From: an uncultured bacterium
Lineage (GTDB): Bacteria > Patescibacteriota > Minisyncoccia > Phycocordibacterales > CAIRYW01
Length of the DNA stretch: 64,000 nucleotides
Assembly: GCA_963766885.1 (NCBI GenBank)
Contig: CAVYBO010000002.1
Location: forward strand, 464,606 to 528,605
Reading direction: 5' to 3'
In this document: positions 38,367 to 58,897 of the stretch, in pieces
Layout: each line of letters opens with the position of its first letter
Position numbering within the stretch: the first letter of the stretch is position 1
Notes under the pieces: generated by a model
Told to the model about the DNA's origin: nothing
Databases searched by the model: none
What the model saw: the letters and a program-made list of their open reading frames with translations, nothing else
Position numbers and translations under genes: made by a program

Positions 38367-39323
<957 letters not shown>

Positions 39324-39674
39324 ATGAATGATTTTGATATACCGATTTTTAAAAAATCCTACAATCTGTACAAAGATTTCTACGAGATTCGTTTGTCCGT
39401 TCCCAAACAGGATAGATACACTCTCTGGCAGAAATGCGAAAGCACTTTGATTGAGATTATCGAGCGTATTCTTCTGGCAAGTCAGCAGTCTAAAATGGAG
39501 AAACTTCCTACTCTGGAGAGAACAAGCGTCAAATTGAATTTCCTCCGAGTTTGTATCCGTCTGATGAAAGACACCAAAGCAATCGATACCAAAAAATATA
39601 TTGTCATCGAAGCGCATCTTGATGAAATTGGAAAAATGCTTGGAGGATGGATAAAGTCCACCAAGGAGCGATAA
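39324..39674 (+). CDS. avd: DGR accessory variability determinant (Avd), encoded on the strand opposite to the RT and TR
   Basis: 116 aa, about the size of the Avd four-helix bundle. The C-terminal HLDEIGKMLGGWIKSTKER closely parallels the Bordetella phage BPP-1 bAvd C-terminus (AEVGRILGSWIARVNRKG). Its start ATG (39324) abuts the RT start codon, forming the divergent junction CAT|ATG. Confidence 0.72.
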   Translation: MNDFDIPIFKKSYNLYKDFYEIRLSVPKQDRYTLWQKCESTLIEIIERILLASQQSKMEKLPTLERTSVKLNFLRVCIRLMKDTKAIDTKKYIVIEAHLDEIGKMLGGWIKSTKER

Positions 39675-39676
39675 CA

Positions 39677-39705
39677 GAAACTCCCACTGTAAAAGTGGGA
39701 GTTTC
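39677..39705. promoter_or_regulatory. perfect 11-bp stem-loop between avd and TR
   Basis: GAAACTCCCAC-TGTAAAA-GTGGGAGTTTC. It lies immediately 3' of avd on the plus strand and immediately 3' of TR on the minus-sense TR RNA. Confidence 0.45.
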
Positions 39706-39725
39706 TTCGGATAGAGTTGTGACTG

Positions 39726-39840
39726 CCGGGAGGCGGAGACACTGAGGTTGTCGTTGCGGTTGTTGTCCCAGTTGTTGTTGACGTTCAGACCCTTGGCATC
39801 GAAGTTGCCGAGGTTCACACGGTTGCCATTCGAGTCGAGA
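39726..39840 (-). repeat. DGR template repeat (TR), 115 bp, sense strand is minus
   Basis: Direct repeat of 40200..40314. All 18 mismatches are T on the plus strand, meaning A on the minus strand, in this copy. Its minus-sense translation is rich in AAC codons (NVNNNWDNNRNDN). Confidence 0.88.
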
Positions 39841-40118
39841 AATTGCTTTCTTCCGTCCGCGTCACTGAGATTTGAGGTTTACCATCTTTGCAGATCTATA
39901 TCCTCTCATCTCTGAATTTTATTTGGGAACAATTTTTTTCAAAATATTTCCACTAGAAAAAAGCAAGAAGTTCTCTCTATCCTTGTCGCACTCTGCCGTA
40001 ATCCTTGAACTACTGGCACTCTGGCGAATCTCAGGTGAGATATCCCGCGAACTTGAACCGTAACCCAAGTTGCATTAGCAAGATTTATAAATATTAACTG
40101 GTTGTATGTAAAAGACAA

Positions 40119-40152
40119 GAGCCTCCGGCAAAAAAATTTTGCGCGGAGGCTC
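40119..40152 (-). terminator. intrinsic terminator or GC hairpin downstream of the DGR target gene and VR
   Basis: 9-bp stem GAGCCTCCG/CGGAGGCTC. On the minus strand the stem is followed by TTGTCTTTT. It is 40 nt downstream of the target stop codon. Confidence 0.45.
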
Positions 40153-40190
40153 AAGGATTCAAGAGGGACAAGCCCTCTAGGGTTCAAGTT

Positions 40191-40970
40191 TCACTGCTTC
40201 CGGGAGGCGGAGACACCGAGGTTGTCGCGGCGGCTGCCGTCCCAGTCGTCGTCGACGAGCAGACCCCCGGCACCGAAGCCGCCGAGGATCACACGGTTGC
40301 CATCCGAGTCGAGATCAACGCAGCGAACGTAGACCTTCTCGAACAGACGCTCGCCGGTGGCGAGGAAGTGGCCGATGATGGTGTAGACCATCACTTGCGC
40401 CTTCGGCGTTTCCTCGTCTTTCGAGAGGAGAGCCTGCTGTTCGGTCCAGTTTTTGCTCGTTGAGTCGGCAACGGGTTCCTTGCGGACCAGTTGCCAGCCG
40501 ACTTCGCCTTTGTCCTTGGCGAACGATTCCTTGTTGTACCAGTCCTGGTTGTAGAACGGGCACTTGCTCTTGGCGATGCCACGGATGTCGAGGATCGAGA
40601 GTGGAAACACGGCGACGAGAATGTGCGTGTCCTTGCAGGACCGGAGCACTTCCTCGGAGAACGGAACTTCGGCCAGAGTGGCGATCTGCTGCTTCGAAGG
40701 GTTAACCCCAAAGTACTTGATTGCTTCCTCGATACCGAAGAAGTTCGCTCCCATGATTTCGCGGGCTTTGAGCCATTGCGGATTCAGGCTTGTGGATGAT
40801 TTGTCCGACAGCCAGAGATTGTCCACTGCAAATCCTGCGAGTCTAGTAAGATACTCCTGATCGATGTTGATACGTTCTGCTACTGCATCGGCGTGATCGC
40901 CGAGTGTAACCCAGAAGCGTTGTTGTGCGCCGTTTATTTCACCGGCTGGAACTTGAGTCCAATTTTTCAT
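40191..40970 (-). CDS. DGR target (variable) protein. The ORF is open up to a GTG at 41093, and the ATG at about 40970 is the preferred start.
   Basis: GC is about 52%. The C-terminal ...NRVILGGFGAGGLLVDDDWDGSRRDNLGVSASRKQ is encoded by the VR. There is no signal peptide. Confidence 0.68.
   Translation of the reverse strand: MKNWTQVPAGEINGAQQRFWVTLGDHADAVAERINIDQEYLTRLAGFAVDNLWLSDKSSTSLNPQWLKAREIMGANFFGIEEAIKYFGVNPSKQQIATLAEVPFSEEVLRSCKDTHILVAVFPLSILDIRGIAKSKCPFYNQDWYNKESFAKDKGEVGWQLVRKEPVADSTSKNWTEQQALLSKDEETPKAQVMVYTIIGHFLATGERLFEKVYVRCVDLDSDGNRVILGGFGAGGLLVDDDWDGSRRDNLGVSASRKQ
40200..40314 (-). repeat. DGR variable repeat (VR) forming the 3' end of the target gene
   Basis: 115 bp and 84% identical to the TR. 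Every one of the 18 differences falls at a TR adenine on the coding sense. It encodes the last 38 codons of the target ORF. Confidence 0.88.
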
Positions 40971-41201
40971 GATGCGTGGTTTCTTTCTGTTAGCTCTTTT
41001 GAAATTATCGGGAGAGCGACTAGTGAGAATACGATCTCGGATATTACGTCTTGTCTTTGTGAGACGAGCTTTATATGTCCTTCGAAAGGGCACAAAAAGC
41101 TCGTCTCAAGCAGTGATAACTTGTCAAAGAAGTTTGGGTATATTATATCACATTTTATAGACTTTTGCAAGTTCAAAATAACTCCTATTTTATAATTAAA
41201 T

Positions 41202-45218: not shown

Positions 45219-45731
45219 TTAATACGAGCCTCGCAAAACCGCTGAGTCCTCAAAAGATTTTGCCGGCGTTCCAGATGTTTGGAGAGTCATCAATATTTGG
45301 ACTCCTGAAGAATTTGAATTGGAAAAATAATTAAATGTCAGATTGGAAACCGTAACATCAGACAAAGTCAGCGGCCCCAATTGCGTGCCGTTTTGGTCAA
45401 CATATAAAACCCCATTCGTTAAATAAAATTTCAAAGTCTCTGAAGTGCCTGTCGGGGTGTTTCCGTTCAAAGTCAAAACTCCGTTCGAGGTTCCAAATGT
45501 TGACTGCGAGGCATTTACGGAATCCGCGTCCCTGATTTCCCGTTCCATCCTGTCCATTGCAGCAACAGCAGAATTTTCAACATCCCTTATTGTTCTCATT
45601 TTTTTGTACGCCTTAACAATACTCGCGGTGCTCCAGATAATTGCTGAAATCAAAATGCAGAGCAAAGCAATATAGATAATTGTCTCAACCAAAGAATAGC
45701 CGCTTTTTTTATTTTTAATTGTTGAAATCAT
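45219..45731 (-). CDS. prepilin-type (type IV pilin or pseudopilin) protein
   Basis: The class III signal is KKSG/YSLVETIIYIALL, with cleavage after G and Glu at +5. The start was chosen at MISTIKN. The longest ORF extends to 45845. Confidence 0.65.
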   Translation of the reverse strand: MISTIKNKKSGYSLVETIIYIALLCILISAIIWSTASIVKAYKKMRTIRDVENSAVAAMDRMEREIRDADSVNASQSTFGTSNGVLTLNGNTPTGTSETLKFYLTNGVLYVDQNGTQLGPLTLSDVTVSNLTFNYFSNSNSSGVQILMTLQTSGTPAKSFEDSAVLRGSY

Positions 45732-46227
45732 TGAATAAATAAGTCTCAAGAATCTGGCTTGTAGTGGCATTTCCATTTTTCCAAGACACGGTGATTGTTG
45801 CTTTCCTGCTTCCAGAGTCCACAGTTCCTCCACTTGATACAACATTAAAATTTGAATCCCTGCTTACGCTTGATAAAACAAAACTTCTTTGAAATTTGCT
45901 TTCAACAAAAGTATTGACCGTCGAAGATGTCCATAAGTTTGAAGTCGAGTTGTAAGTCAAATAATAAGTGTTCCCGACAGTGAGAGCTGCGATGTTTGAA
46001 GTCCATCCAGCGTCTCTGATCGAGCGCAAGGCCTCGCTTCCTTCTTCCAATAAAAATCCTGCTTGAACATAAGAAGTATCTCTTTCCGCAAACTGCGTGA
46101 CTATAGAAAAGCACCAGAAAACTCCGACCCAAAGCGCAAGCATTACTGCCGCTCCAATCATTATTTCAACCAAGCTGAAACCTTTTGTTTTTTTATTATG
46201 AATTTTGCCTTTCATTATGTTAATCAT
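45715..46227 (-). CDS. prepilin-type (type IV pilin or pseudopilin) protein
   Basis: The signal is KTKG/FSLVEIMIGAAV. The start at 46227 overlaps the upstream stop by ATGA. Confidence 0.65.
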   Translation of the reverse strand: MINIMKGKIHNKKTKGFSLVEIMIGAAVMLALWVGVFWCFSIVTQFAERDTSYVQAGFLLEEGSEALRSIRDAGWTSNIAALTVGNTYYLTYNSTSNLWTSSTVNTFVESKFQRSFVLSSVSRDSNFNVVSSGGTVDSGSRKATITVSWKNGNATTSQILETYLFNDFNN

Positions 46228-46682
46228 TGTGAAATGCCAGAACCATAAATCGTAATCACCGTTGAATTGCCTTTTGATGAAAGAGTTACGGTGCCTGTCG
46301 TACTTGGAATGCCTGTGACTTTATTGAAATAAAAACTTGTCGTCGCGTTAGAAAGGACAGTTGAAATCTTTGAAACAGCTAAATTATACACCGCGTCCCT
46401 AGCCGCCCCATCCACATTTGTCCCCTGAAACAGAAGCACCGAAGAATGTCCGAACGAAATACCATGTTCAACGCTTTCATCCCCGTTTAAAGCCATTGTC
46501 CTTGCCTTGGATAAGGCAGAGAGGACTATTGATTTATCCGAGTCCAAAGTGTTTTCACTGGAAGTGCTAATCATTGCAGCCGCGCCAGCCAAAGCCAAAA
46601 TCGTAACGATTGCCAAAACAATAATCAACTCAAGAAAAGTTGCCCCGGATTTTTTATTTTTTTTTGTTCCTGAAAAAAACAT
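46224..46682 (-). CDS. prepilin-type (type IV pilin) protein
   Basis: 152 aa with the signal KKSG/ATFLELIIVLAIVTIL and the typical Glu at +5. Confidence 0.7.
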   Translation of the reverse strand: MFFSGTKKNKKSGATFLELIIVLAIVTILALAGAAAMISTSSENTLDSDKSIVLSALSKARTMALNGDESVEHGISFGHSSVLLFQGTNVDGAARDAVYNLAVSKISTVLSNATTSFYFNKVTGIPSTTGTVTLSSKGNSTVITIYGSGISQ

Positions 46683-47896
46683 TATGGTGAAATATTGTTA
46701 AGCACTGTATACATCGGAGTAATCATTGAAACGGCAAAAAATCCCACCGCCAAACCTATGACAACCATAAGTACTGGTTCTATTACGGTAGACATATCCT
46801 TGGTCTTTTGCTCAACTTCATTTTCATAATATTCCGCGGTTTGTTTTAACATATCTGAAAGCTTCCCCGTCTCTTCCCCAACGCTTGCCATTTCAGCCAT
46901 AAAAGCAGGATACAAATCTTCATGTTGCTCGAATATCCCTGAAATCGGCTCTCCTTTTTGTATAACAGCGGCCATTTGATCCAAAACAGTTTTATAAAAA
47001 GAATTTTGGATGACATCTTTGGTAATTTGCACAGCCTTAACCATGTCTACACCAGAAGAAAGAAGCGATGACATTGTCCTGGCTGTCCTTGCGGAATTAG
47101 TTTCTTTGGTAAGCACTCCTATAACAGGCAGTCTGAGAATTATAATTTCATAAAGTTTTTTGCCCCAGGAGCTCCTAAAAACATAGACAAATCCTGAAAT
47201 AAAAAGTATCACTCCTAAAGATAAAAGAACGTAATGATTTATGACGGTGCTGCTGATATCAAGAATCACCTGTGTTGATCCAGGGATTGGAGCATTAAGG
47301 TCTTTGAAAGTTGAAGTTAAAGTAGGCACAACAAATATGAGCATCAGGACCGCAATTACAAGCATCAAAGTTATAACGATAGCAGGATAAATCATCGCTC
47401 CTTTGATTTTTTTGGCTAAGGTATAATTTTTTTCCATCTGATTTGCCACAAGCATCAAAGATTCCGAAAGTGATCCGCTTTCTTCTCCTGCGCGCACCAT
47501 TGAAATAAAAAGTGAATTGAATGTGTCAGGAAAACTTTCAAGGGCATCATGAAAAGTCTTGCCCTCAGCCACTGATTTGATAACTACGCCCAGCATGTTT
47601 TTCATCTTTTCTGACTTTGACTGCTTTTCTATCACTTGAAGCCCTCTGGAAAGAGCAAGTCCGGCCTTCAACATTGAACCTAAATTCTTGGCAAAAATAA
47701 TTTTGTCATGGGTGCCAATTTTATTTCCAATAAAGGGAATTTTGATATTCAGACTTCCCGAGCCTCCCGCTTTAGAAAATTTTATTAGCGATAGATTTTC
47801 TTTTTTTAGTTCAGCAAAAAGAGCAAACTTGTCTGCAGCATCAAAAACACCTTCGCCTATTTGCTCCCCATTTTTATAACTGACTTTGAATTTCAT
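46682..47896 (-). CDS. pilC: type IV pilus assembly platform protein PilC (GspF family)
   Basis: 404 aa with two T2SF domains and 3 TM helices, directly downstream of pilB. Confidence 0.85.
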   Translation of the reverse strand: MKFKVSYKNGEQIGEGVFDAADKFALFAELKKENLSLIKFSKAGGSGSLNIKIPFIGNKIGTHDKIIFAKNLGSMLKAGLALSRGLQVIEKQSKSEKMKNMLGVVIKSVAEGKTFHDALESFPDTFNSLFISMVRAGEESGSLSESLMLVANQMEKNYTLAKKIKGAMIYPAIVITLMLVIAVLMLIFVVPTLTSTFKDLNAPIPGSTQVILDISSTVINHYVLLSLGVILFISGFVYVFRSSWGKKLYEIIILRLPVIGVLTKETNSARTARTMSSLLSSGVDMVKAVQITKDVIQNSFYKTVLDQMAAVIQKGEPISGIFEQHEDLYPAFMAEMASVGEETGKLSDMLKQTAEYYENEVEQKTKDMSTVIEPVLMVVIGLAVGFFAVSMITPMYTVLNNISP

Positions 47897-47898
47897 AA

Positions 47899-49683
47899 TT
47901 ACTCCGAAATGACTCTGAGCACTTCTTCTATTGTGGTGTACCCTTTTATGGCTTTGACAATACCATCTTCAATCATTGAGAGCATCCCGTCTTTTTTGGC
48001 TTGAATTTCTATTTCGTCGGCAGAAGAATTTTTCATTATCAAGTTTCTGATTGTTGGAGTAATCCTTAAAACCTCATGAATACCGATTCGGGAATGATAA
48101 CCGTCAGGATATTCTTTGGAAGGAGATGCTTTCCAGAATTCAACATCTTTCCAAGTAGCATCCGGACCGACTATTTTTTCTTCTTTCAAAACAGCAAGAA
48201 CTCTCTCTGTATTTATTTTGGAAGTTAAATTTTTTATTTCCGCCTCAGTTAATTTAAATTTTTCCTTGGGTTTTTCAAGCCTTCGCACAAGCCTTTGACC
48301 GATGATAATCTGCAAAGTAGAAACCAAAAGAAACGGTTCGGCCTTCATATCAATAAGTCTTGGTATGGCTCCTGCAGCAGAGTTGGTATGAAGAGTTGAA
48401 AGCACTAAGTGTCCGGTAAGCGCAGCATTTATTGCAAGTGAAGCTGTTTCATCATCTCTGATTTCTCCAACCATAATTATATCCGGGTCCTGCCTGACCA
48501 AGCTCCTCAATCCTGAAGAAAAAGTAAATCCTATATCTGGCTTGACCTGTGTCTGATTTATCCTTTTCATCTGATATTCAATCGGATCTTCAATAGTTGA
48601 GATGTTTACATCCGGAGTGTTTAAAAGATCAAGCAGTGTGTAGAGCGTTGTGGTTTTTCCGCTTCCTGTCGGGCCAGTTGTTAGAATCATTCCTGTGGTT
48701 AAATTCATTGCTTGGTGAAGTTTTTCCAACGCTTCTCCAAAAAATCCCAACCCCTCAAGAGAAAATCCTGCACCGTTTTCTCTAAGCAATCTCATCACAG
48801 TCTTCTCTCCATAGTAAGTCGGAAGCATTGAAACACGGAAAGAAATCTGTTCACCGTTTATATCCATTTTGAATCGGCCATCCTGGGGCAAACGTTTTTC
48901 ATCCAGCTTCAAATTTGAAAGTACTTTTATTCTAGCTGTAATTCCGGCGCCTGCAGCTTTGGGTAAAATCATTGCGTCATGGAGAATGCCATCTATTCTA
49001 TACCTGATAATTACTTCATTCTCATACGGCTCAATATGTATGTCGGAAGCATCTTGAATAGCCGCATGCTTTACCAATGTATCTACAATTCTAACTACAG
49101 GAAGTTCTTCTGCGATTTTTTTTAAATCGTCTCCACTGGATTCTGTAATTTTGCCAAAATCTTCCGAAAGTCTCCCTGCTTCATTTTTGATAATATCTCC
49201 GAAGTCTGCTTTCAGGCTTTTCTGATATTGGAGCAATGCCGATTTTATAGAATCAACATTGGTAAGTCGCGGCAATATTCTAAGTCCGGTTTTCTTCTTG
49301 ATAAAACTTATTTCCGAAAAGTCTTCCACATCAAGCATGGCTACTTCAAGATCAGTTTCCGTTTTTTTGAAAGCAATAATGTTGTGCTTCCTGGCAATCG
49401 GCTCAGGAATCAAAGATAGAGTGGCAAAATCAAGCTTCTTGTCTTTCAAATCAACAAATGTGATTCCAAGCACATAAGCTTTGATGCGGATTAAATCATC
49501 TTCGCTTAGTTTGCCCTGGCGTACCAAAACATTTCCAATATCATCTTTCGCATCAAGGGCTTCTTTTTTGGCCGCATCCAAATCCTGTCTGGAAACCAGA
49601 CCCGAATCGAAAATAAATTTTTCAAGTTGTGTTGATTCAATAACCATTTGAGAGAATATTGAACTAATTATATCAGATAACAA
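47899..49683 (-). CDS. pilB: type IV pilus assembly ATPase PilB (GspE family)
   Basis: 594 aa with an N-terminal GSPII_E_N-like domain, Walker A GPTGSGKTTTL, Asp and His boxes, and a tetracysteine-less CPR-type C-terminus. Confidence 0.85.
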   Translation of the reverse strand: MLSDIISSIFSQMVIESTQLEKFIFDSGLVSRQDLDAAKKEALDAKDDIGNVLVRQGKLSEDDLIRIKAYVLGITFVDLKDKKLDFATLSLIPEPIARKHNIIAFKKTETDLEVAMLDVEDFSEISFIKKKTGLRILPRLTNVDSIKSALLQYQKSLKADFGDIIKNEAGRLSEDFGKITESSGDDLKKIAEELPVVRIVDTLVKHAAIQDASDIHIEPYENEVIIRYRIDGILHDAMILPKAAGAGITARIKVLSNLKLDEKRLPQDGRFKMDINGEQISFRVSMLPTYYGEKTVMRLLRENGAGFSLEGLGFFGEALEKLHQAMNLTTGMILTTGPTGSGKTTTLYTLLDLLNTPDVNISTIEDPIEYQMKRINQTQVKPDIGFTFSSGLRSLVRQDPDIIMVGEIRDDETASLAINAALTGHLVLSTLHTNSAAGAIPRLIDMKAEPFLLVSTLQIIIGQRLVRRLEKPKEKFKLTEAEIKNLTSKINTERVLAVLKEEKIVGPDATWKDVEFWKASPSKEYPDGYHSRIGIHEVLRITPTIRNLIMKNSSADEIEIQAKKDGMLSMIEDGIVKAIKGYTTIEEVLRVISE

Positions 49684-49776
49684 TCTCTCAAGAAAACAAA
49701 ACTATGAAAATTAATAGCCAAAAAACAGCTCCTAGTAATTACTAAAAGCTGTTTTTCTTTTATGACTAATAATATT

Positions 49777-52700
49777 TTACGGATTTATTGCTTGATCAGA
49801 TGTCGGTGTGCCGATAATAAACTTGTTCTGTACACAGATGTAGTATTGATTGTTCTCATTATTTGAGCCAGGATCTTCAGATACCGCTCCAGTTCTTACA
49901 GGTAACGCGTGAGACCCGCAATACAATATTCCTGTTGGTCTATCGCTTTGTGTACCGGCATATGTGCCTTCGCATTCATGATACTTTGGTGAAGTTACAG
50001 CAACTCCCCAAAGAGAAGCTTGAACACCTCTAGCATTAGTGTCCCCAGTTACGCTACCGTCAGCATGGCGTATCAGATTGCCAGTCAAGATACACCTTCC
50101 TCCTCCGACAATAGCCTGCAGAGGTGAACAGTTTTCACTGCCATCCGGATTAAATCCTGTAAGATACTGGCCGTCTGGACAAGTTTTTTCAGCTAATAAA
50201 GGATTAGCTGCTGGTGTAGGCAAAGAAGTACAAACTTCTTTTCCGCTAGAACTAAAGCCTGAAAGATAAGATCCTGCAGCGCAAGTTCCGAGTGATGATG
50301 CCAAAGACGCCACAGATTTACATGCAAGCTTTCCTGAAGCATCTGAACCCGAAGCGTATTGTCCAGCTGGGCAGCTTGATTCTTTAGGAGTATACACCGG
50401 TATTGATTTACAGATAGCCTGACCGTTAGATTCAATTCCTGAGACATACTGACCAGCAGGACAAGCGCTTGATCCTGATGGCAACACAATTCCTTTACAT
50501 ACCACTTTTCCTCCATCTCCCAGACCTGAAGCGTATTCTCCAGCAGGGCAAACATTTGAGGTTGGAAGAGCGAAAGTAGGAATAATTTTACAGATAGCCT
50601 GACCGTTAGATTCAATTCCTGAGACATACTGACCAGCAGGACAAGCGCTTGATCCTGATGGCAACACAATTCCTTTACATACCACTTTTCCTCCATCTCC
50701 CAGACCTGAAGCGTATTCTCCAGCAGGGCAAACATTTGAGGTTGGAAGAGCGAATCCTGCAGGAATAGTTTTGCAGACTGAAGCTCCGGTAGAACTAAAG
50801 CCTGAGAGATAATCTCCAGTTGGGCAAGTTCCGAGTGATGATAGAGATGATGGTATAGTTTTGCAGACTACATTACCCTTGGAATCTAGACCGTTAGCAA
50901 ATTCTCCGGCAGGACAGCTGTTACCTGATTGAAAGGTTACTACAAGAGACTGACAGACTACTTTTCCTCCATCTCCTAGACCGGTAGCATACTTTCCAGC
51001 AGGGCAAACATTTGAGGTTGGAAGAGCGAAAGTAGGAATAATTTTACAGATAGCCTGACCGTTAGATTCAATTCCTGAGACATACTGACCAGCAGGACAA
51101 GCGCTTGATCCTGATGGCAACACAATTCCTTTACATACCACTTTTCCTCCATCTCCCAGACCTGAAGCGTATTCTCCAGCAGGGCAAACATTTGAGGTTG
51201 GAAGAGCGAATCCTGCAGGAATAGTTTTGCAGACTGAAGCTCCGGTAGAACTAAAGCCTGAGAGATAATCTCCAGTTGGGCAAGTTCCGAGTGATGATAG
51301 AGATGATGGTATAGTTTTGCAGACTACATTACCCTTGGAATCTAGACCGTTAGCAAATTCTCCGGCAGGACAGCTGTTACCTGATTGAAAGGTTACTACA
51401 AGAGACTGACAGACTACTTTTCCTCCATCTCCTAGACCGGTAGCATACTTTCCAGCAGGGCAAACATTTGAGGTTGGAAGAGCGAAAGTAGGAATAATTT
51501 TACAGATAGCCTGACCGTTAGATTCAATTCCTGAGACATACTGACCAGCAGGACAAGCGCTTGATCCTGATGGCAACACAATTCCTTTACATACCACTTT
51601 TCCTCCATCTCCCAGACCTGAAGCGTATTCTCCAGCAGGGCAAACATTTGAGGTTGGAAGAGCGAATCCTGCAGGAATAGTTTTGCAGACTGAAGCTCCG
51701 GTAGAACTAAAGCCTGAGAGATAATCTCCAGTTGGGCAAGTTCCGAGTGATGATAGAGATGATGGTATAGTTTTGCAGACTACATTACCCTTGGAATCTA
51801 GACCGTTAGCAAATTCTCCGGCAGGACAGCTGTTACCTGATTGAAAGGTTACTACAAGAGACTGACAGACTACTTTTCCTCCATCTCCTAGACCGGTAGC
51901 ATACTTTCCAGCAGGGCAAACATTTGAGGTTGGAAGAGCGAAAGTAGGAATAATTTTACAGATAGCCTGACCGTTAGATTCAATTCCTGAGACATACTGA
52001 CCAGCAGGACAAGCGCTTGATCCTGATGGCAACACAATTCCTTTACATACCACTTTTCCTCCATCTCCCAGACCTGAAGCGTATTCTCCAGCAGGGCAAA
52101 CATTTGAGGTTGGAAGAGCGAAAGTAGGAATAATTTTACAGATAGCCTGACCGTTAGATTCAATTCCTGAGACATACTGACCAGCAGGACAAGCGCTTGA
52201 TCCTGATGGCAACACAATTCCTTTACATACCACTTTTCCTCCATCTCCCAGACCTGAAGCGTATTCTCCAGCAGGGCAAACATTTGAGGTTGGAAGAGCG
52301 AATCCTGCAGGAATAGTTTTGCAGACTGAAGCTCCGGTAGAACTAAAGCCTGAGAGATAATCTCCAGTTGGGCAAGTTCCGAGTGATGTGAGGACTGGTA
52401 AATTTCCGCAAACAGCTTCGCCATTAGAATGTATTCCTGTGACATATTGACCGGTAGGACAAACATTTGATGGAAGAGTTATGACTGGTAAAGTTTTACA
52501 TATCACTTTTCCTGAAGCATCTAAACCGTCGGCAAATTCGCCGATGATACAACTGTTCGGTGATGGAAGAGTTAGACTTGCGGGCAGAGTCTTACAAATT
52601 ACCCCTCCTGATGAATTTAGACCGTCGGCAAATTCTCCAATAGGACAGTTATTGGGTATCGGAAAATAGAATGGTTTTGAATTTATTATTAACTGCCCAG

Positions 52701-53235
52701 TGCCAGTATTTGCACCAGAGCCGCCTAAAGTTATACCGTTACCAGCGACAATTTTTATTACACCTGTATTTGAAACCTGAACTGTTGGAAAACCTGAATT
52801 ATTTATTGAAATACCCGTTCCGGCAGTAATTGCAGAAATTCCCGAAACAGGGCCAGTGGTGGCTACTTGAGACGGAAAAAAACAATTCTCTCCATTTTGA
52901 TCACAATATTTTTGCGCCCCAATAGACCCAGGAACTGCAAGATCAAGAATATCAAAAGCATTGGTGTTAGGTATGGTGCTTCCGCTAGACCATCCAAAAT
53001 AGCCAGGACCAAATGATCTTAGAACTGCTGCTGCAAAGCCGCCAACTTTTGTTTGTGAAGTCGCGCTAACGGTTATAGGAAGATCACAACCAACATCACC
53101 AGACGGACAGTTGGTTGGCGCTCCAGGAGCTCCTGTCCAAGCATATGCCGCAGAGCTAACTGCAAAAACTATGAACAAAGCAACCGTTAGGGTTTTGATT
53201 TGTGCACATACTCTTTTTTTTATTTCTTGTCGCAT
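49777..53235 (-). CDS. giant secreted Cys-rich tandem-repeat protein (about 25 copies of a CP.G.Y..G.....G...CK module)
   Basis: 1152 aa with a signal peptide (TLTVALFIVFAVSSAAYA). The repeat module is about 30 aa with 2 Cys. The higher-order repeat is 152 aa and its DNA copies are near-identical. Confidence 0.6.
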   Translation of the reverse strand: MRQEIKKRVCAQIKTLTVALFIVFAVSSAAYAWTGAPGAPTNCPSGDVGCDLPITVSATSQTKVGGFAAAVLRSFGPGYFGWSSGSTIPNTNAFDILDLAVPGSIGAQKYCDQNGENCFFPSQVATTGPVSGISAITAGTGISINNSGFPTVQVSNTGVIKIVAGNGITLGGSGANTGTGQLIINSKPFYFPIPNNCPIGEFADGLNSSGGVICKTLPASLTLPSPNSCIIGEFADGLDASGKVICKTLPVITLPSNVCPTGQYVTGIHSNGEAVCGNLPVLTSLGTCPTGDYLSGFSSTGASVCKTIPAGFALPTSNVCPAGEYASGLGDGGKVVCKGIVLPSGSSACPAGQYVSGIESNGQAICKIIPTFALPTSNVCPAGEYASGLGDGGKVVCKGIVLPSGSSACPAGQYVSGIESNGQAICKIIPTFALPTSNVCPAGKYATGLGDGGKVVCQSLVVTFQSGNSCPAGEFANGLDSKGNVVCKTIPSSLSSLGTCPTGDYLSGFSSTGASVCKTIPAGFALPTSNVCPAGEYASGLGDGGKVVCKGIVLPSGSSACPAGQYVSGIESNGQAICKIIPTFALPTSNVCPAGKYATGLGDGGKVVCQSLVVTFQSGNSCPAGEFANGLDSKGNVVCKTIPSSLSSLGTCPTGDYLSGFSSTGASVCKTIPAGFALPTSNVCPAGEYASGLGDGGKVVCKGIVLPSGSSACPAGQYVSGIESNGQAICKIIPTFALPTSNVCPAGKYATGLGDGGKVVCQSLVVTFQSGNSCPAGEFANGLDSKGNVVCKTIPSSLSSLGTCPTGDYLSGFSSTGASVCKTIPAGFALPTSNVCPAGEYASGLGDGGKVVCKGIVLPSGSSACPAGQYVSGIESNGQAICKIIPTFALPTSNVCPAGEYASGLGDGGKVVCKGIVLPSGSSACPAGQYVSGIESNGQAICKSIPVYTPKESSCPAGQYASGSDASGKLACKSVASLASSLGTCAAGSYLSGFSSSGKEVCTSLPTPAANPLLAEKTCPDGQYLTGFNPDGSENCSPLQAIVGGGRCILTGNLIRHADGSVTGDTNARGVQASLWGVAVTSPKYHECEGTYAGTQSDRPTGILYCGSHALPVRTGAVSEDPGSNNENNQYYICVQNKFIIGTPTSDQAINP
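50400..52330. repeat. near-perfect tandem DNA repeats (456-bp unit, made of a 180-bp A sub-unit and a 276-bp B sub-unit, about 4 copies) inside the giant gene
   Basis: Identical alternate-frame ORFs recur at 50976, 51432 and 51888, spaced exactly 456 bp apart. A 180-bp sub-repeat is duplicated at 50401/50581 and at 51961/52141. Confidence 0.85.
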
Positions 53236-53570: not shown

Positions 53571-55001
53571 TTAATTAGTTTCCGTAACGGTTCCGTTTGC
53601 ATAGCAAGTCGCAGGGTTTGATGTACTTTCTATAGTAGCTAAATCAGGTTTTTCTCCGCACTTAAGAATATATGTTTGTTCTGCTGAGTAAACACTAACT
53701 TTATGACTGGAAACCGAAGTTGCTGAAAATTGATATATAGGATTAAGAGTAGGACTGCCGCCATTATTACTAGAAACATATTGGGATAGCGTACACCAAG
53801 AATTAGAGTCGACTTTATTAAATATCCAACTTAGAGTGCACGTGCCGCCAACATCAACTGTCTTAGGATTTGCAGTAAGATTTTTTATTGATACACTGCC
53901 AGAATTAACATTACAGTTACTAGGAGTCTCTGAAGAAGCAGAAGATTCTGCTGTTCCATATGCATTTGATGCTGTAATTAAATAATTATATGCATTTCCC
54001 AAACTAACAGATGTGTCAATAAAAGGTGAAGTCTGGATGCCTAAATTCTTCCCATCAGATCTAGTTACACTGTAAGTTATAGGCTGATTTCCAGAAGAAG
54101 AATTAAAAGTCAAATACATAATCGGCGATGTCCCATAACATTGACCAACAGCAGTAACTAGCGGTACAGAGGGTCCGGTTCCGCCACCATTATTTGAACA
54201 TAAGTAATTAGGAGGTGGGATAGCACTACACACAGTGCCTGTTGAATCGTAGTATCCGGTATTTGTCATGCCACAATTATTTGGTGCAGAAATGCATGGA
54301 CACAAAGTATTTGAAGGTACTGCAGGCACGATAGGTGTACATATAGGATTAAAATTCGCATCGCAAGAATAATTTCCGGTAGTGCCTGTATTTGTCATAC
54401 CGCAAACGTTAGCTGGACTTGTGGATGTAGCGCTGCATACACCTTCGTACTGGCAAGTTTTAATTTGTGTAATGCCTGGGCCATATACAGCATAGTTTCC
54501 GGTATTGTTATCGTCTTTGCTATTAAAGCTCACCCATCCTATATAATCACCGCCCCAAGCAAAACCTTTAAATTGTTGGGTATTGGTAGCATCATATGTA
54601 ACACCATACTGACTCCCAGATAGGCTGACACAACCATTGGCTCCCGCGGTGAGAGCATCGGCAAAACCGGAAACAGCGCCTGTTGTAAGATTTACATTTG
54701 GCGTCAAACCGCAACTAGATTGGTTAAAACTGATCCAGCCAAGGCCATCACTCCAAGCGTAGCCAGAAAGCGCGCCTGTAGAAGTACTTAGATTTACTCC
54801 GTAACTGGGAGCACCAGATATGTCGCTAGAATTAAAACTTATCCATCCGATATTGTCAGACCAGGCAAAACCAGAAACATTATTATTAGGATTAGTTTGG
54901 GCTTTAAGAAGAGAAGGTGCAGCAAACAAAACAATAGTCAAAATAAATATTGTAAATATGAAGAGAGTGGATATTAAGTAAAACAGGCGACTTTGTTTCA
55001 T
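53571..55001 (-). CDS. secreted protein with four G[FY]AWSD.[IL]GW[IV]SFN repeats
   Basis: 476 aa with a signal/TM segment. A repeated motif of about 40 aa occurs four times. The rest is Ser/Thr/Asn/Gly-rich and contains many Cys. Confidence 0.45.
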   Translation of the reverse strand: MKQSRLFYLISTLFIFTIFILTIVLFAAPSLLKAQTNPNNNVSGFAWSDNIGWISFNSSDISGAPSYGVNLSTSTGALSGYAWSDGLGWISFNQSSCGLTPNVNLTTGAVSGFADALTAGANGCVSLSGSQYGVTYDATNTQQFKGFAWGGDYIGWVSFNSKDDNNTGNYAVYGPGITQIKTCQYEGVCSATSTSPANVCGMTNTGTTGNYSCDANFNPICTPIVPAVPSNTLCPCISAPNNCGMTNTGYYDSTGTVCSAIPPPNYLCSNNGGGTGPSVPLVTAVGQCYGTSPIMYLTFNSSSGNQPITYSVTRSDGKNLGIQTSPFIDTSVSLGNAYNYLITASNAYGTAESSASSETPSNCNVNSGSVSIKNLTANPKTVDVGGTCTLSWIFNKVDSNSWCTLSQYVSSNNGGSPTLNPIYQFSATSVSSHKVSVYSAEQTYILKCGEKPDLATIESTSNPATCYANGTVTETN

Positions 55002-55095
55002 TTTTTGATTGTCTACAATTGAATTGTAACATGGACAATTTTTTTATAACAAACAAATATGTTGATAAGTGAACCTTTAATATACTAATATTTTA

Positions 55096-57534
55096 CTAAC
55101 GGACCTCCTTAAAGCTTCCATTAGGATAGCAATTAGCATAAAGCGATGGATTTACTGGTGTTGTAATTGACGTATTTACAGAACCGTCAGAATTTATCGC
55201 ATATTGCACGCAAGAGAGCCTAAATCTAGTTTCTGAAGTCACTCCACTAATGGTTGTTATGCCACTATCGCTGCTTATTGAAGTCGGACTGAAGCCAGAA
55301 GTAGTGTCGTTATATATTGAACAGCTGTAATATGTAGGATCAAAATTAGAAAGCGACCAGGAGAGATCGCAACTGTTATTACTAGTGATTATTTTGGAAG
55401 AATCTATTACTTCAAAACTATCTACGGACAAAGGAGCTGCTGCGCAGGCAGGTGCAGTGTTGTCGTAAGAATAAGCCGTGGGAGACAAAGACCCATCACT
55501 TCCTTCAGCTTGAACCGCATAGTTGTAATATGTTCCCGAAATTACTGGCGTATCAGTTGCTGTATTACCATCATTGGACAAAGGAGAATAAACTGAACAA
55601 TTGGTATCTGTAGAAGTGCATTTTGAAAAATTGTAAGTTATTCCGAGACTTGCAGGCGGTACAGATACGACGATTGATGGATTCACTCCTCCCGCTCCAC
55701 AACTTTTTGATATTTGTATGCTTGGAGTTCCTACAGAACCAACATCAACCGGAGTACATTGGATATCTTGAGCATATGCGCCTGTATCATAATCATACAC
55801 ATAAAGCTCCATATTTTCAGTTCCGGTGGCGTCATATGTGTCAGTAACAGAAGAATCGTAGTAATCTGAATAACTTGATGGGTCATACCAATCGTAAAAG
55901 TAATCTCCACTGCCCCCTGTTATATTTGCATTCCATGTAACTTGTTCGCCAACTTCTGCAGAGGATGGATCTGGGGCGCAAGTGACTGAAAGAGGCGCTG
56001 GGTTTATGTATTCATCCGAACATTGTTCCCAAGGATTTGACGGGTCATAAGCTCCCACGACTGGTATCGGATTTCCATTTGAATCCAGTACTTGAAGCGA
56101 CATTGATTGGTAACCTCCAGAACCGTACGAGGTAGTTGTTGAATCTCCTCCGTTATAAGTTATATTTCCATTTGAATCACCCCAGTTATATGTAAAAGGT
56201 CCATTATTATCATTCACGCTTGCTGTCCAAGTCACAGGATCTCCAATTGAAGCAGGGTTTGGCGATGGCGAACAAGCAAATGACGGACAGCTGTCCGAAC
56301 TCTCCGCTTCCGCGGTATTAGAAAGAACAGATTCATTGCCGGAGTCATCTACACTTGATACCTGGAAATCAAGAGGTTGGTCTGTATTATAGCCATTGCC
56401 TTGATAGGTATATGTTGTTGTCGCAGAAACACTATCAATCTGAGAACCAAAAAGATAAATGTTATAGCTTGCAGCGCCGTCTACAGGGCTCCAACTCAAA
56501 TCTACATTACCTCCGCATTCTGGGTCAGTGGAAACTGTGAAGTCTTGGGGTACGGCACAAGTTTTAGAGCCTATTACACTTGATGACGGAGAAGAAAGTG
56601 GGGATTCCCCTCCATATGAAGTAATATCAGATACTTCATATGAAAAGCCTTCATGTGTTGTGTCCTGAGTTGAATTGCAAGTTGGATCGTATACCCAATT
56701 CCAATTATCATCGTATCCAAAGCAATCAGATAATCCGCTTACATCATCTGTGTAATCTATATTTCCATCACCATCAGCTGTAACGTTAAAATTATCAGCT
56801 ATTGATTCATAATTCCCTGTTGCATAATTCAATCTATAAACATTGTACCCTGTAGCCTTAGTAACTTGCTGCCAGGACAGATCAATGTTATCTCCGCATT
56901 CATTTGAAGTTTGGGCAGTAAGACCTTGAGGAGGTGCGGGGCAGGCATCTGAACTATCAGCTTCAGCGGTATTTGAAAGGGCAGATTCATAACCGGAACC
57001 ATCCACGCTTGAAACCTGGAAATCAAGAGGCTGATCTATATTAGAACCGCCACCATCCCACGTGTATGTAGTAGCTGGTGCAGATACGCTGTCAACCAGA
57101 AAGCCAAAGTAATAAATGTTGTAATAGGAAGCGCCAGCTACAGGATTCCAACTCAAATCAACATCTCCTCCGCAGGTTTGACTAGTAGTGACAGTCAGAT
57201 TTTGAGGAGTACAGTTAGTTGAAGACATAGCGGAAGTAGCGGAACTTAACGCTGTAGGATAATAGCCGCCGATAGTTTCATATCCATTATTATCAAAACT
57301 GATACCAGATTCAACAGCACCAACTTTGTAGTAATAAGTTGTATTTCCAAGAGGCGGAGTATCAGTAAAAGGGTACGTCTCACCATACCAACCAGTATAT
57401 CCGGTAGTTGTAGCAATCTGGACGAATGGTCCAGTTAGTAGAATTTGACCGGTAAATTTCATATGTGCCTTGATAAGGAATTTGACCCCAGCCAACATTG
57501 ACGCTTCCTTGGCAAGTGGCTCCGGTCCTGGCAA
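55096..57534 (-). CDS. large secreted protein with repeated FN3-like modules. It is probably the C-terminal part of one gene whose N-terminal part is the ORF 57380..58897.
   Basis: 812 aa. The repeated pattern C..(G)..VDLSW.PV.GA..YNIY occurs about four times. There is no signal peptide of its own. It overlaps the upstream ORF by 155 nt in another frame. Confidence 0.45.
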   Translation of the reverse strand: MPGPEPLAKEASMLAGVKFLIKAHMKFTGQILLTGPFVQIATTTGYTGWYGETYPFTDTPPLGNTTYYYKVGAVESGISFDNNGYETIGGYYPTALSSATSAMSSTNCTPQNLTVTTSQTCGGDVDLSWNPVAGASYYNIYYFGFLVDSVSAPATTYTWDGGGSNIDQPLDFQVSSVDGSGYESALSNTAEADSSDACPAPPQGLTAQTSNECGDNIDLSWQQVTKATGYNVYRLNYATGNYESIADNFNVTADGDGNIDYTDDVSGLSDCFGYDDNWNWVYDPTCNSTQDTTHEGFSYEVSDITSYGGESPLSSPSSSVIGSKTCAVPQDFTVSTDPECGGNVDLSWSPVDGAASYNIYLFGSQIDSVSATTTYTYQGNGYNTDQPLDFQVSSVDDSGNESVLSNTAEAESSDSCPSFACSPSPNPASIGDPVTWTASVNDNNGPFTYNWGDSNGNITYNGGDSTTTSYGSGGYQSMSLQVLDSNGNPIPVVGAYDPSNPWEQCSDEYINPAPLSVTCAPDPSSAEVGEQVTWNANITGGSGDYFYDWYDPSSYSDYYDSSVTDTYDATGTENMELYVYDYDTGAYAQDIQCTPVDVGSVGTPSIQISKSCGAGGVNPSIVVSVPPASLGITYNFSKCTSTDTNCSVYSPLSNDGNTATDTPVISGTYYNYAVQAEGSDGSLSPTAYSYDNTAPACAAAPLSVDSFEVIDSSKIITSNNSCDLSWSLSNFDPTYYSCSIYNDTTSGFSPTSISSDSGITTISGVTSETRFRLSCVQYAINSDGSVNTSITTPVNPSLYANCYPNGSFKEVR

Positions 57535-58897
57535 TCACATTTGCGGGCGCACAAGCGTTTGTAGAAGTTGTAGAGACAATATTTGAAAAAGTTTGGTTGT
57601 TCCCTCCTTCATTAATCGCGCCAATCATATAATATATTTTTTCGTTGTAACTATATTGTCGATTATCATTAAAGGAGGTTGTTGTTGCAGAAAATGGATA
57701 AAGATAAGGACCTGTAGTAGGAGTAATATTCGTCCAAGGTCCGTTTGAAGATTGGCTCCAATTTACCCAATACCCATCAGGATTATCAGTGGTAGAAGTT
57801 GCTGTAGGAGTGCTCCAACTCAAGGAAGCACCAAAGCCACCACAAGAACCCGCTGTGGTCGATTGAAGAACAGGAGCTGGCGCTGGACACTCACCAGAAT
57901 TTTCCCAATAACCTCCAGCATTAGCATATACGCCCGCGCCATTGATATTTATCGGCACTACATAGTAATTCCCACTATAACTGTAATTATACTGCTGAAT
58001 ATTAGGGTAAGGATTAGAAACAGTAACAACAGAATTGGGATCCGCCTTGACGTTATCAATATAACTTGTGGCAGAAGGACTTGTGGTACCAGCTAAGTAA
58101 TAATTACCGCTCTGATCGGTTTTCCAAATCTGCCATTCACTAATTACAGGAACTCCCGTCAATGGATGGAGTCCGTAAGGTCCATACCCACCTAGTGTAG
58201 TCCCAGGATAATTGCTTGGAGGAATATTCGTAGCCTGAATTGGACTGGTGCTTGCATTGAGACTTCCATAATAGCCTGGAGCATACTCAAAAACCTGAAC
58301 ATTTGTTGGCGGCGCAGTCCAACTTATCTGCTCTTTGTAACCGCACTCAGGAGCTGGTGCAACGGAAGTATTCTCAGGCGGCCATATCGGCTTACACACA
58401 GCCGAAGCCTGACTTAAGTTATATGAAGTACCAGCATAACTCTCCCAAAACTTAGTCGAATCATAAGTTATTGGTCCTGTCCCATAGGAATTTACAGGCT
58501 CTACATAAATAGTAAAATTTGTTTGATGGTAATCATTTCCAATATTCCCGTCAAAAGAATAATCGCCGCTGTCAGCTGCATTTCCCATTTGATAAGTTAC
58601 TAAATGCTGGCTACCGTTTTCTGGAACTTCTCCCAATAAGCCAGATGAGGAAGTATACGGATCAATATCACCGTTCTCATAAAAATCATAAGCCGTAGCG
58701 GTATCGCTATTTCCCCAAGCCAAATCTATGTACCCACCGCATTGAGGGTCTGGCTGAGTATAAAGCCAACTAACACCACTAGGAGGGTTATTTTGAGCCC
58801 AAACATGATTTGGAGAGAGAAAAGCGATTGTAAAAAGAAAAACTCCAAAAATAAATCCGTAGAAACTTTTTTTATTAAATAAAATTCTTTTTGACAT
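57380..58897 (-). CDS. secreted protein and probable N-terminal part of a frameshifted giant surface protein
   Basis: 505 aa with a signal peptide (FIFGVFLFTIAFLSPNHVWA). The C-terminal ...GTYEIYRSNSTNWT continues the FN3-like pattern seen in the next ORF. Confidence 0.45.
   Translation of the reverse strand: MSKRILFNKKSFYGFIFGVFLFTIAFLSPNHVWAQNNPPSGVSWLYTQPDPQCGGYIDLAWGNSDTATAYDFYENGDIDPYTSSSGLLGEVPENGSQHLVTYQMGNAADSGDYSFDGNIGNDYHQTNFTIYVEPVNSYGTGPITYDSTKFWESYAGTSYNLSQASAVCKPIWPPENTSVAPAPECGYKEQISWTAPPTNVQVFEYAPGYYGSLNASTSPIQATNIPPSNYPGTTLGGYGPYGLHPLTGVPVISEWQIWKTDQSGNYYLAGTTSPSATSYIDNVKADPNSVVTVSNPYPNIQQYNYSYSGNYYVVPININGAGVYANAGGYWENSGECPAPAPVLQSTTAGSCGGFGASLSWSTPTATSTTDNPDGYWVNWSQSSNGPWTNITPTTGPYLYPFSATTTSFNDNRQYSYNEKIYYMIGAINEGGNNQTFSNIVSTTSTNACAPANVIARTGATCQGSVNVGWGQIPYQGTYEIYRSNSTNWTIRPDCYNYRIYWLVW

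Follow-up and report, generated by a model that had tools for sequence, protein, structure and literature searches.

Surface fibres and adhesins built from repeats, stalks whose repeats are identical at the DNA level, and chimeric architectures resembling phage tail fibres are all known already. Among Gram-positive surface proteins, alpha C/Rib and the B-repeats of SasG/Aap are encoded by DNA-identical tandem repeats, with copy number and protein length changing through recombination. In the Candidate Phyla Radiation (CPR; Patescibacteria), little is understood, to our knowledge, of how hosts are found and held beyond the involvement of type IV pili. Here, we analyzed a 64,000-nt stretch of DNA from an uncultured bacterium of this radiation (GenBank assembly GCA_963766885.1, contig CAVYBO010000002.1, positions 464,606 to 528,605; hereafter, the window), in which a gene on the minus strand (49777..53235) encodes a putatively secreted cysteine-hairpin repeat fibre protein (hereafter, the target). 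With a probability of about 0.6, we interpret the target as an extracellular fibre or adhesin that would be exported via Sec by a Paceibacteria (CPR) bacterium and would be a chimera of an N-terminal handle, a recently amplified cysteine-hairpin shaft and a tip. What is new is a shaft module that lies outside every curated family, the combination of this module with a Paceibacteria handle domain beside pilus genes, and the spread of the module over pilin-like and mosaic adhesive trimer (MAT)-like proteins of predatory bacteria.

As in alpha C/Rib and SasG/Aap, in-frame, near-perfect DNA repeats build a stalk after an N-terminal domain in the target. Unlike those proteins, in which the repeats have an Ig-like or G5-E fold and contain no cysteines, the stalk of the target is predicted to consist of one-disulfide hairpins; the target also lacks an LPXTG motif, and no copy-number variants were seen for it. 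The predicted chain of small, disulfide-stapled beta-hairpins is likewise reminiscent of the cysteine-rich domains (CRDs) of the TNF receptor (TNFR), the furin-like/EGFR Cys-rich repeats and EGF arrays, and the motif CPxGxY is common in furin-like repeats; however, those have two or three disulfides per module rather than the single one predicted here, and there was no significant match, so that the likeness is a resemblance in kind and not membership. The MAT proteins of Bdellovibrio are phage tail-fibre-like chimeric fibres, and the text of the MAT paper does not describe a shaft made of Cys hairpins (Caulton et al., 2024, PMC10769870). Like them, the target would be a secreted fibre with a conserved N-terminal part and a swappable shaft and tip, and its Cys module is also present in proteins with MAT-like N-termini; unlike them, it has no match to NF053851 (Bdello_MAT_N) at E ≤ 0.1, and no S74 chaperone, beta-helix or TNF-like tip. 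Large, signal peptide-bearing, Cys-rich extracellular proteins were described from Peribacteria, with a proposed role in attachment, a locus of strain variation, and a reported weak similarity to Myxococcus Cys-rich repeats (Anantharaman et al., 2016, PMC4736985). The target also comes from a CPR bacterium, is large and Cys-rich, and has a signal peptide; unlike the Peribacteria proteins, it does not match the Myxococcus Cys-rich repeat model in NCBIfam.

Gene and Domain Architecture

The gene is a complete open reading frame (ORF) of 1152 amino acids (aa) plus a stop codon, with an ATG start, as given by the ORF list and its translation, and it was present exactly where the original prediction had placed it. 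The protein contains 65 Cys residues (5.6%), against 0-4% for the remaining long ORFs of the window; the earlier description of a Cys-rich protein with a Sec-type leader ending AYA↓W was borne out from the sequence, although "giant" is generous for a protein of 1152 aa. The Sec-type signal peptide (aa 1-32; 53140..53235, on the minus strand like all parts of the gene) has a basic n-region, a hydrophobic helix and an AYA↓W cleavage site, and AlphaFold2 (AF2) places a helix at aa 2-27; the leader reads MRQEIKKRVCAQIKTLTVALFIVFAVSSAAYA, and the mature protein would begin with W. The leader is followed by an N-terminal "handle" domain (aa 33-135; 52831..53139) with the pattern WTxP..PP.G..P[IL]N....Q.K.G and then a YC-x6-C loop, and by a connector rich in Gly, Thr and Asn (aa 136-196; 52648..52830), which reads GISAITAGTGISINN...GNGITLGG... 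and is of low confidence in AF2 (predicted local distance difference test [pLDDT] score <35). An array of 28 two-Cys modules (C-x16-C) then occupies aa 197-1036 (50128..52647), based on a module table, on 28 domains found with a hidden Markov model (HMM) profile, and on AF2. The protein closes with an orphan C-terminal domain with four Cys (aa 1037-1152; 49780..50127; AF2 pLDDT about 28), a candidate distal tip, that ends ...NKFIIGTPTSDQAINP (the last residues being ...TSDQAINP).

The 64 Cys expected in the mature protein make an even total. Each module contributes two, the C-terminal domain four, and the N-terminal part a pair of C-x6-C loops (one of which is also present in relatives). This count is consistent with full pairing. 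The target has no prepilin cleavage/methylation motif (G↓F-T-L-I-E) and no match to TIGR02532, PF07963 or any other pilin model in Pfam and NCBIfam; its C-terminus has no LPXTG motif, hydrophobic segment or basic tail; and neither an S74 chaperone nor a collar domain was found in Pfam and PHROG searches. The N-terminal 196 aa and the C-terminal 126 aa, used as queries in a protein homologue search, gave no matches.

Repeat Anatomy of the Module Array

All cysteines between aa 197 and 1036 fall into 28 pairs of fixed spacing 17 (i and i+17, hence 16 intervening residues), and 12-17 residues lie between one pair and the next. In our interpretation, each module is connected to its neighbor by a Pro/Ser/Thr linker of 11-14 aa. 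Labelled by type, the modules run in the order A B C D E F E F G H D E F G H D E F G H D E F E I J K M, or ABC-D-EF-EF-GH-(DEFGH)x2-DEF-E-I-J-K-M in compact form; an apparent "L" module is a linker, the flanking Cys of which are 17 apart by coincidence. The module motif in the target is C-P-x-G-x-[YF]-x-x-G-x4-G-x3-C, and the consensus over the target and one homologue is CPxGxYxxGxxxxGxxxC followed by xxxP. The original prediction had counted about 25 modules, which is too few, and the G-x5-G of its motif is G-x4-G. Its view that modules of about 30 aa are organized into 152-aa super-repeats was upheld by the module table and by self-comparison: the super-repeat consists of the five modules D-E-F-G-H (456 bp), and a shorter unit of 180 bp consists of the two modules E-F (60 aa).

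Modules of the same letter are as identical in DNA as they are in protein. At a shift of 456 nt, exact self-comparison gave a perfect run of 1128 nt, which corresponds to an in-frame tandem array of 1584 nt (50539..52122) containing 3.47 copies; the 456-bp units, described earlier as near-identical, have 0 mismatches across all 1584 nt. The claim of an extra 180-bp sub-unit at each array end also held, with perfect E-F duplications at the 5' (N-terminal) edge (51907..52302; 216-nt exact run at shift 180) and the 3' (C-terminal) edge (50407..50754; 168-nt exact run at shift 180). Tandem Repeats Finder recovered the same periods: 456 (50497-52122, 3.6 copies, 99%) and 180 (50407-50754, 1.9 copies, 100%; 51865-52302, 2.4 copies, 96%). 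The alternate-frame ORFs reported to recur at 50976, 51432 and 51888 do exist and have identical N-termini; we rejected them as genes, as they are by-products that echo the repeat.

Between modules of differing type, the 54-nt cores share 44-85% DNA identity, whereas the super-repeat copies are 100% identical, which indicates recent in-frame amplification or continuing homogenization. The modules themselves are thus old and their amplification new, which fits recombination as the process behind it, and the earlier proposal of recent expansion or contraction by recombination is supported by the same contrast. Since 456 and 180 bp are both multiples of three and the copies are perfectly identical, gain or loss of a unit would change the length of the protein while the reading frame is kept. 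Regional GC content is raised across the array, and this can be attributed to amino acid composition (Gly, Ala, Pro and Cys codons), given that GC content at third codon positions (GC3) in the array is 0.24, compared with 0.27-0.38 in adjacent genes. By this measure, codon usage in the array is native. Horizontal transfer from GC-rich predators was considered and is unsupported, the array GC3 being within or below the local range.

The copy number as assembled may be a product of assembly, as the original prediction had cautioned, and the most serious rival explanation is that the gene is real but that the number and order of its units (3.5 copies of 456 bp, with two 180-bp duplications) are an artefact, having been expanded, collapsed or mis-threaded. 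The nested, perfectly identical repeats span about 2 kb, which is longer than short reads and inserts, and searches of protein, metagenome and viral data found no independent copy of the gene for comparison. Scans of metagenomes, viral contigs and phage records for the target were empty; no second allele with another copy number was found in the metagenome and viral scans, and the protein databases contain no exact or close relative. Furthermore, in 23 of 80 related pilB loci (L001-L080), the contig breaks off no more than about 3.3 kb upstream of pilB, on the side where the target gene lies, compared with about 11 of 80 downstream; this excess suggests that the upstream slot is hard to assemble. 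Nevertheless, the array lies within 64 kb of unbroken sequence, the reading frame stays open across 1152 codons, every repeat junction lies at a module boundary, and the nested E-F duplications at both edges look like products of unequal crossover, unlike a typical collapse. In addition, short-read assemblers usually break at such repeats instead of threading through them. On balance, we regard an artefactual copy number as rather unlikely, and favor a shaft that would have grown recently via in-frame unequal recombination or slippage.

Predicted Structure of the Module

For AF2, we modelled one super-repeat (151 aa) with aligned module arrays of other proteins as input, a check that had been proposed along with the original prediction. 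The unit has a mean pLDDT of 74.9 (about 80 in the hairpins and about 64 in the linkers), and each module comprises two strands, x-Y-x-x-G-hydrophobic and G-x-x-x-C-K. The first Cys is located four residues ahead of strand 1 and the second within strand 2, so that a disulfide between them would staple the CPxG turn onto the hairpin. Thus, in the model, each module is presumably an 18-residue beta-hairpin closed by one predicted disulfide. The full-length AF2 model likewise has hairpins for 28 of 28 modules, in addition to the N-terminal helix. A Foldseek search with the unit model against the Protein Data Bank (PDB) returned nothing at E ≤ 1e-3 (best E = 3.6e-3, TM 0.14); the top non-significant matches were CRDs of the TNFR.

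Module Family and Distribution

We built a module profile of 30 positions (alignment A1), to which the target contributed 12 modules and a homologue (P0001) contributed 10, counting as modules those cores that have two Cys with 15-16 residues between them and that occur in tandem copies with linkers of 9-16 aa. On the target, the profile finds 28 domains with 879 bits. Against 1.84 billion representative proteins, it matched 441 at E ≤ 1e-3, 68 at E ≤ 1e-10 and 4 at E ≤ 1e-30. The score on the target together with so few matches (only 441 of 1.84 billion at E ≤ 0.001) excludes chance, and the outcome of the search indicates that the module is real, rare and unannotated. In a word-indexed search of 5.8 billion proteins with the whole target, the sole relative was P0001 (1088 aa), which has ten modules N-terminally and shares only the modules with the target; it is encoded among two-component regulators and orphans.

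Other module-bearing proteins fall into several recognizable contexts. Among the best 150 matches, at least 46 begin with a prepilin cleavage/methylation motif and have the modules in the C-terminal half, several of which were confirmed by pilin models. About 19 of the best 150 instead have MAT-fibre-like N-termini, in which a signal peptide is followed by "P..L..QG.L.D..G.P"; of ten MAT-like proteins tested, four match the first 75 positions of NF053851 at 1e-5 to 1e-6, below its cutoff. In further proteins, the array occurs together with collagen triple-helix repeats and a tip of the fibrinogen-like GGGWT type. Given these pilin-like, MAT-like and collagen/fibrinogen-tipped contexts, the module elsewhere appears to be a shaft or spacer inside extracellular filament proteins in every context that could be recognized by sequence. 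Organism names were retrieved for three module-bearing clusters only, and the few named proteins are from Myxococcota, (Pseudo)bdellovibrionaceae and Bacteriovorax.

The earlier statement that the module belongs to no named family was borne out at significance in Pfam, NCBIfam, PHROGs and the PDB, and the search with a single-module profile that had been proposed with it gave the 441 representative proteins. The nearest Pfam model is PF22460 (Neopullulanase-like C-terminal domain), which reaches a summed 38 bits over many modules against a sequence cutoff of 27, although none of the individual stretches is significant. For one 152-aa unit, the score is 16.2 bits (E = 0.014) against model positions 32-67 of 79 (about 45%), and the aligned part covers one linker and one hairpin; unlike PF22460 proteins, the target has no glycoside hydrolase context. 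PF23091 matched the unit at only E = 0.031. NCBIfam, PHROGs and PDB sequences gave nothing relevant for the module, the PDB sequence search yielding only a spurious match to a BIR domain (E = 0.06). In Pfam and NCBIfam, TIGR02232 (Myxococcus cysteine-rich repeat) and other named bacterial Cys repeats were unmatched, both by the whole protein (E ≤ 0.1) and by one unit (E ≤ 1 to 10).

Two module-bearing proteins are of separate note. In a pilin-like protein (P0007), aa 393-425 match NF058652 ("WING-49 domain") with 20.5 bits against a cutoff of 22, overlapping one module, so that a related hairpin may already be covered by a curated model; the target itself has no match to NF058652. Another protein (P0006) has ten modules with DKDTDT-type linkers and a C-terminal region of about 190 aa that by eye resembles the collagen IV NC1 type (TRWGRGSCPTGSTLVYAGY...), unconfirmed by Pfam.

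Handle Domain and the pilB Locus

The N-terminal ~130 aa of the target are homologous to an ORF directly upstream of pilB in one of the 80 related loci (L004; BLASTP E = 2.5e-13). Using jackhmmer, the handle domain was also detected directly upstream of pilB in L080, L001, L077, L030 and L065, and slightly further off in L037. These relatives have in common a leader with AxA↓W, followed by the pattern W-[TS]-x-P...PP...P-[IL]-N...Q-x-K-x-G and by a C-x(4-6)-C loop, with W33, P40, P44 and P53 invariant (alignment A4). The target therefore belongs with the Paceibacteria handle-domain fibres encoded upstream of pilB, a group defined in this analysis. On the 3' side of the handle, the relatives bear no resemblance to one another: the distal part consists of GIGT-type fibre repeats and a Peptidase_S74 chaperone in L065 (1.7e-18), includes a T4 Gp10_C-like domain in L001 (2.9e-9), and matches tail-collar fibre PHROGs in L004 (6e-19), whereas that of the target is the Cys-hairpin shaft and the orphan 116-aa domain. 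A common handle with differing distal parts places the target in a set of tail-fibre-like chimeric proteins. This chimeric make-up had been missed in the original prediction, as had the recurrence of the module in pilin-like and fibre proteins of predatory bacteria; its observations as a whole are confirmed, and its interpretation as a whole is partly supported.

Downstream of the target gene, and co-oriented with it, is a pilB-type ATPase gene (47899-49683, minus strand), which is followed by a pilC-type platform gene (46682-47896, minus strand) and, 3' of pilC, by three prepilin-like genes (45219-46682, minus strand). The closest relatives of this PilB (64-79% identity) are all from Paceibacteria/Parcubacteria-type CPR metagenome-assembled genomes. 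In the relatives, the slot upstream of pilB appears hypervariable and, wherever its sequence is available, holds very different large secreted proteins (211-1610 aa).

Based on this arrangement, the target could alternatively be an accessory of the type IV pilus, either bound to the pilus or displayed by it (a tip-associated adhesin, for instance), rather than a free-standing fibre anchored in the wall or membrane. The gene ends only 93 bp from pilB and is co-oriented with pilB, pilC and the prepilin-like genes, homologues of its N-terminal domain occur at pilB in seven related loci (six directly upstream, with L037 slightly further off), and the module elsewhere is most often fused to prepilin-type, minor-pilin-like proteins. 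However, the target has a Sec-type leader and neither a prepilin G↓F-x-x-x-E motif nor a match to a pilin model; the slot upstream of pilB contains unrelated genes in most relatives; and the target gene is separated from pilB by a strong intrinsic-terminator-like hairpin (49715..49756, minus strand) with a 16-bp stem and a U run (-24.4 kcal/mol, z = -5.6, with 0 of 200 shuffles as stable). We therefore consider a pilus-borne accessory unlikely. In addition, neither the module profile nor a regular expression found the module in any of the 80 related pilB loci, which indicates that the shaft is a lineage-specific acquisition and that the link to the pilus is positional only.

Inferred Function of the Target

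For the interpretation of the target as an extracellular fibre or adhesin, we envisage that the protein would be exported through Sec and that oxidative folding would yield 28 stapled hairpins, forming an elongated shaft of 840 aa. The C-terminal 116-aa domain with its four Cys would be displayed distally as a binding tip, in whatever oligomeric state the fibre may adopt, and the length of the fibre could vary with gain or loss of repeat units, as the length-variable surface display put forward in the original prediction would require. A role in attachment is suggested by the tail-fibre tips of the positional homologues, by the occurrence of the module in pilin and fibre contexts, and by the Cys-rich candidates already put forward for CPR bacteria (PMC4736985).

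Several observations weigh against this interpretation. For the putative tip (116 aa), protein searches found no homologue and there was no Pfam match. In the full-length AF2 model, pLDDT is <35 at aa 27-195 and 1038-1152, that is, in the handle and the tip, and the pTM (predicted template modelling) score of 0.30 for the 151-aa unit leaves inter-module packing undefined, so that a rod and a flexible tether are not separated. The strong terminator hairpin that lies between the stop codon of the target and pilB, the lack of the module in all 80 related loci and a copy number that may have arisen in assembly also belong on this side.

A further alternative is that the target is a structural or protective component of the envelope, such as an S-layer-like coat or spacer, that would have no specific ligand and in which the repeats would set envelope thickness. 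The protein is Cys-rich, repetitive and of low complexity, no recognizable binding domain was found in it by Pfam and NCBIfam searches, and the adjacent genes (53571-58897) likewise encode large secreted orphans. Against this, the N-terminal domain family bears tail-fibre tips of the receptor-binding type in relatives, the module elsewhere occurs in pilins and in fibres with lectin-type tips (the fibrinogen-like GGGWT domain), and a distinct 116-aa C-terminal domain has been retained; an envelope coat thus seems improbable, and we favor an extracellular fibre or adhesin with a distal tip.

On a broader scale, we tentatively propose, while regarding it as doubtful at present, that the two-Cys hairpin serves bacterial contact filaments as a portable "shaft" module not described before. 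It would be common to the minor pilins and the MAT-like fibres of Bdellovibrionota and Myxococcota, both predatory, and to the tail-fibre-like chimeric fibre of one episymbiotic CPR bacterium. Under this proposal, the slot upstream of pilB in Paceibacteria would be a cassette site that recombines the handle with shafts and receptor-binding tips and thereby sets host range, and fibre length would be tunable via perfect-repeat recombination. A tail-fibre-like secreted family with a common handle and exchangeable distal parts beside a pilus motor would offer candidate host-recognition molecules, and with the module profile, pilin-like proteins and fibre proteins of predatory bacteria could be annotated better. 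With its perfect repeats, the shaft lends itself to testing how recombination changes length in a bacterium whose genome is tiny, and it is also a warning flag on assembly quality.

Neighboring Genes and Other Features of the Window

Further upstream of the target, the region 53571-58897 encodes large secreted orphans. The nearest (53571-55001, minus strand) is a 476-aa secreted protein with 4.1% Cys and repeated G[FY]AWSDxxGWISF motifs that belongs to no Pfam or NCBIfam family; proteins with this motif are encoded directly upstream of pilB in two relatives (L028, 8834-9970; L065, 8540-9955). Two more large secreted orphans are encoded at 55096-57534 and 57380-58897 (minus strand); their ORFs as listed share about 150 nt, and one of the two start codons is therefore probably mis-assigned. 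Of these two proteins, that of 812 aa has weak PKD/GH85_C-like Ig repeats and an Ig-type match to the PHROG "major tail protein" (7e-17). A prophage origin was rejected, as the neighbors are pilus and housekeeping genes. An Rfam search of the window found no family.

The window also contains a classic diversity-generating retroelement (38367-41093, minus strand). It comprises a reverse transcriptase ORF (38367-39818, minus strand; RVT_1, 2.4e-27), a template repeat of 118 nt (39723-39840, minus strand), and a variable repeat (40197-40314, minus strand) at the 3' end of a 300-aa ORF (40191-41093). In 18 of the 19 mismatches between the two repeats, an A in the template is replaced by another base in the variable copy.

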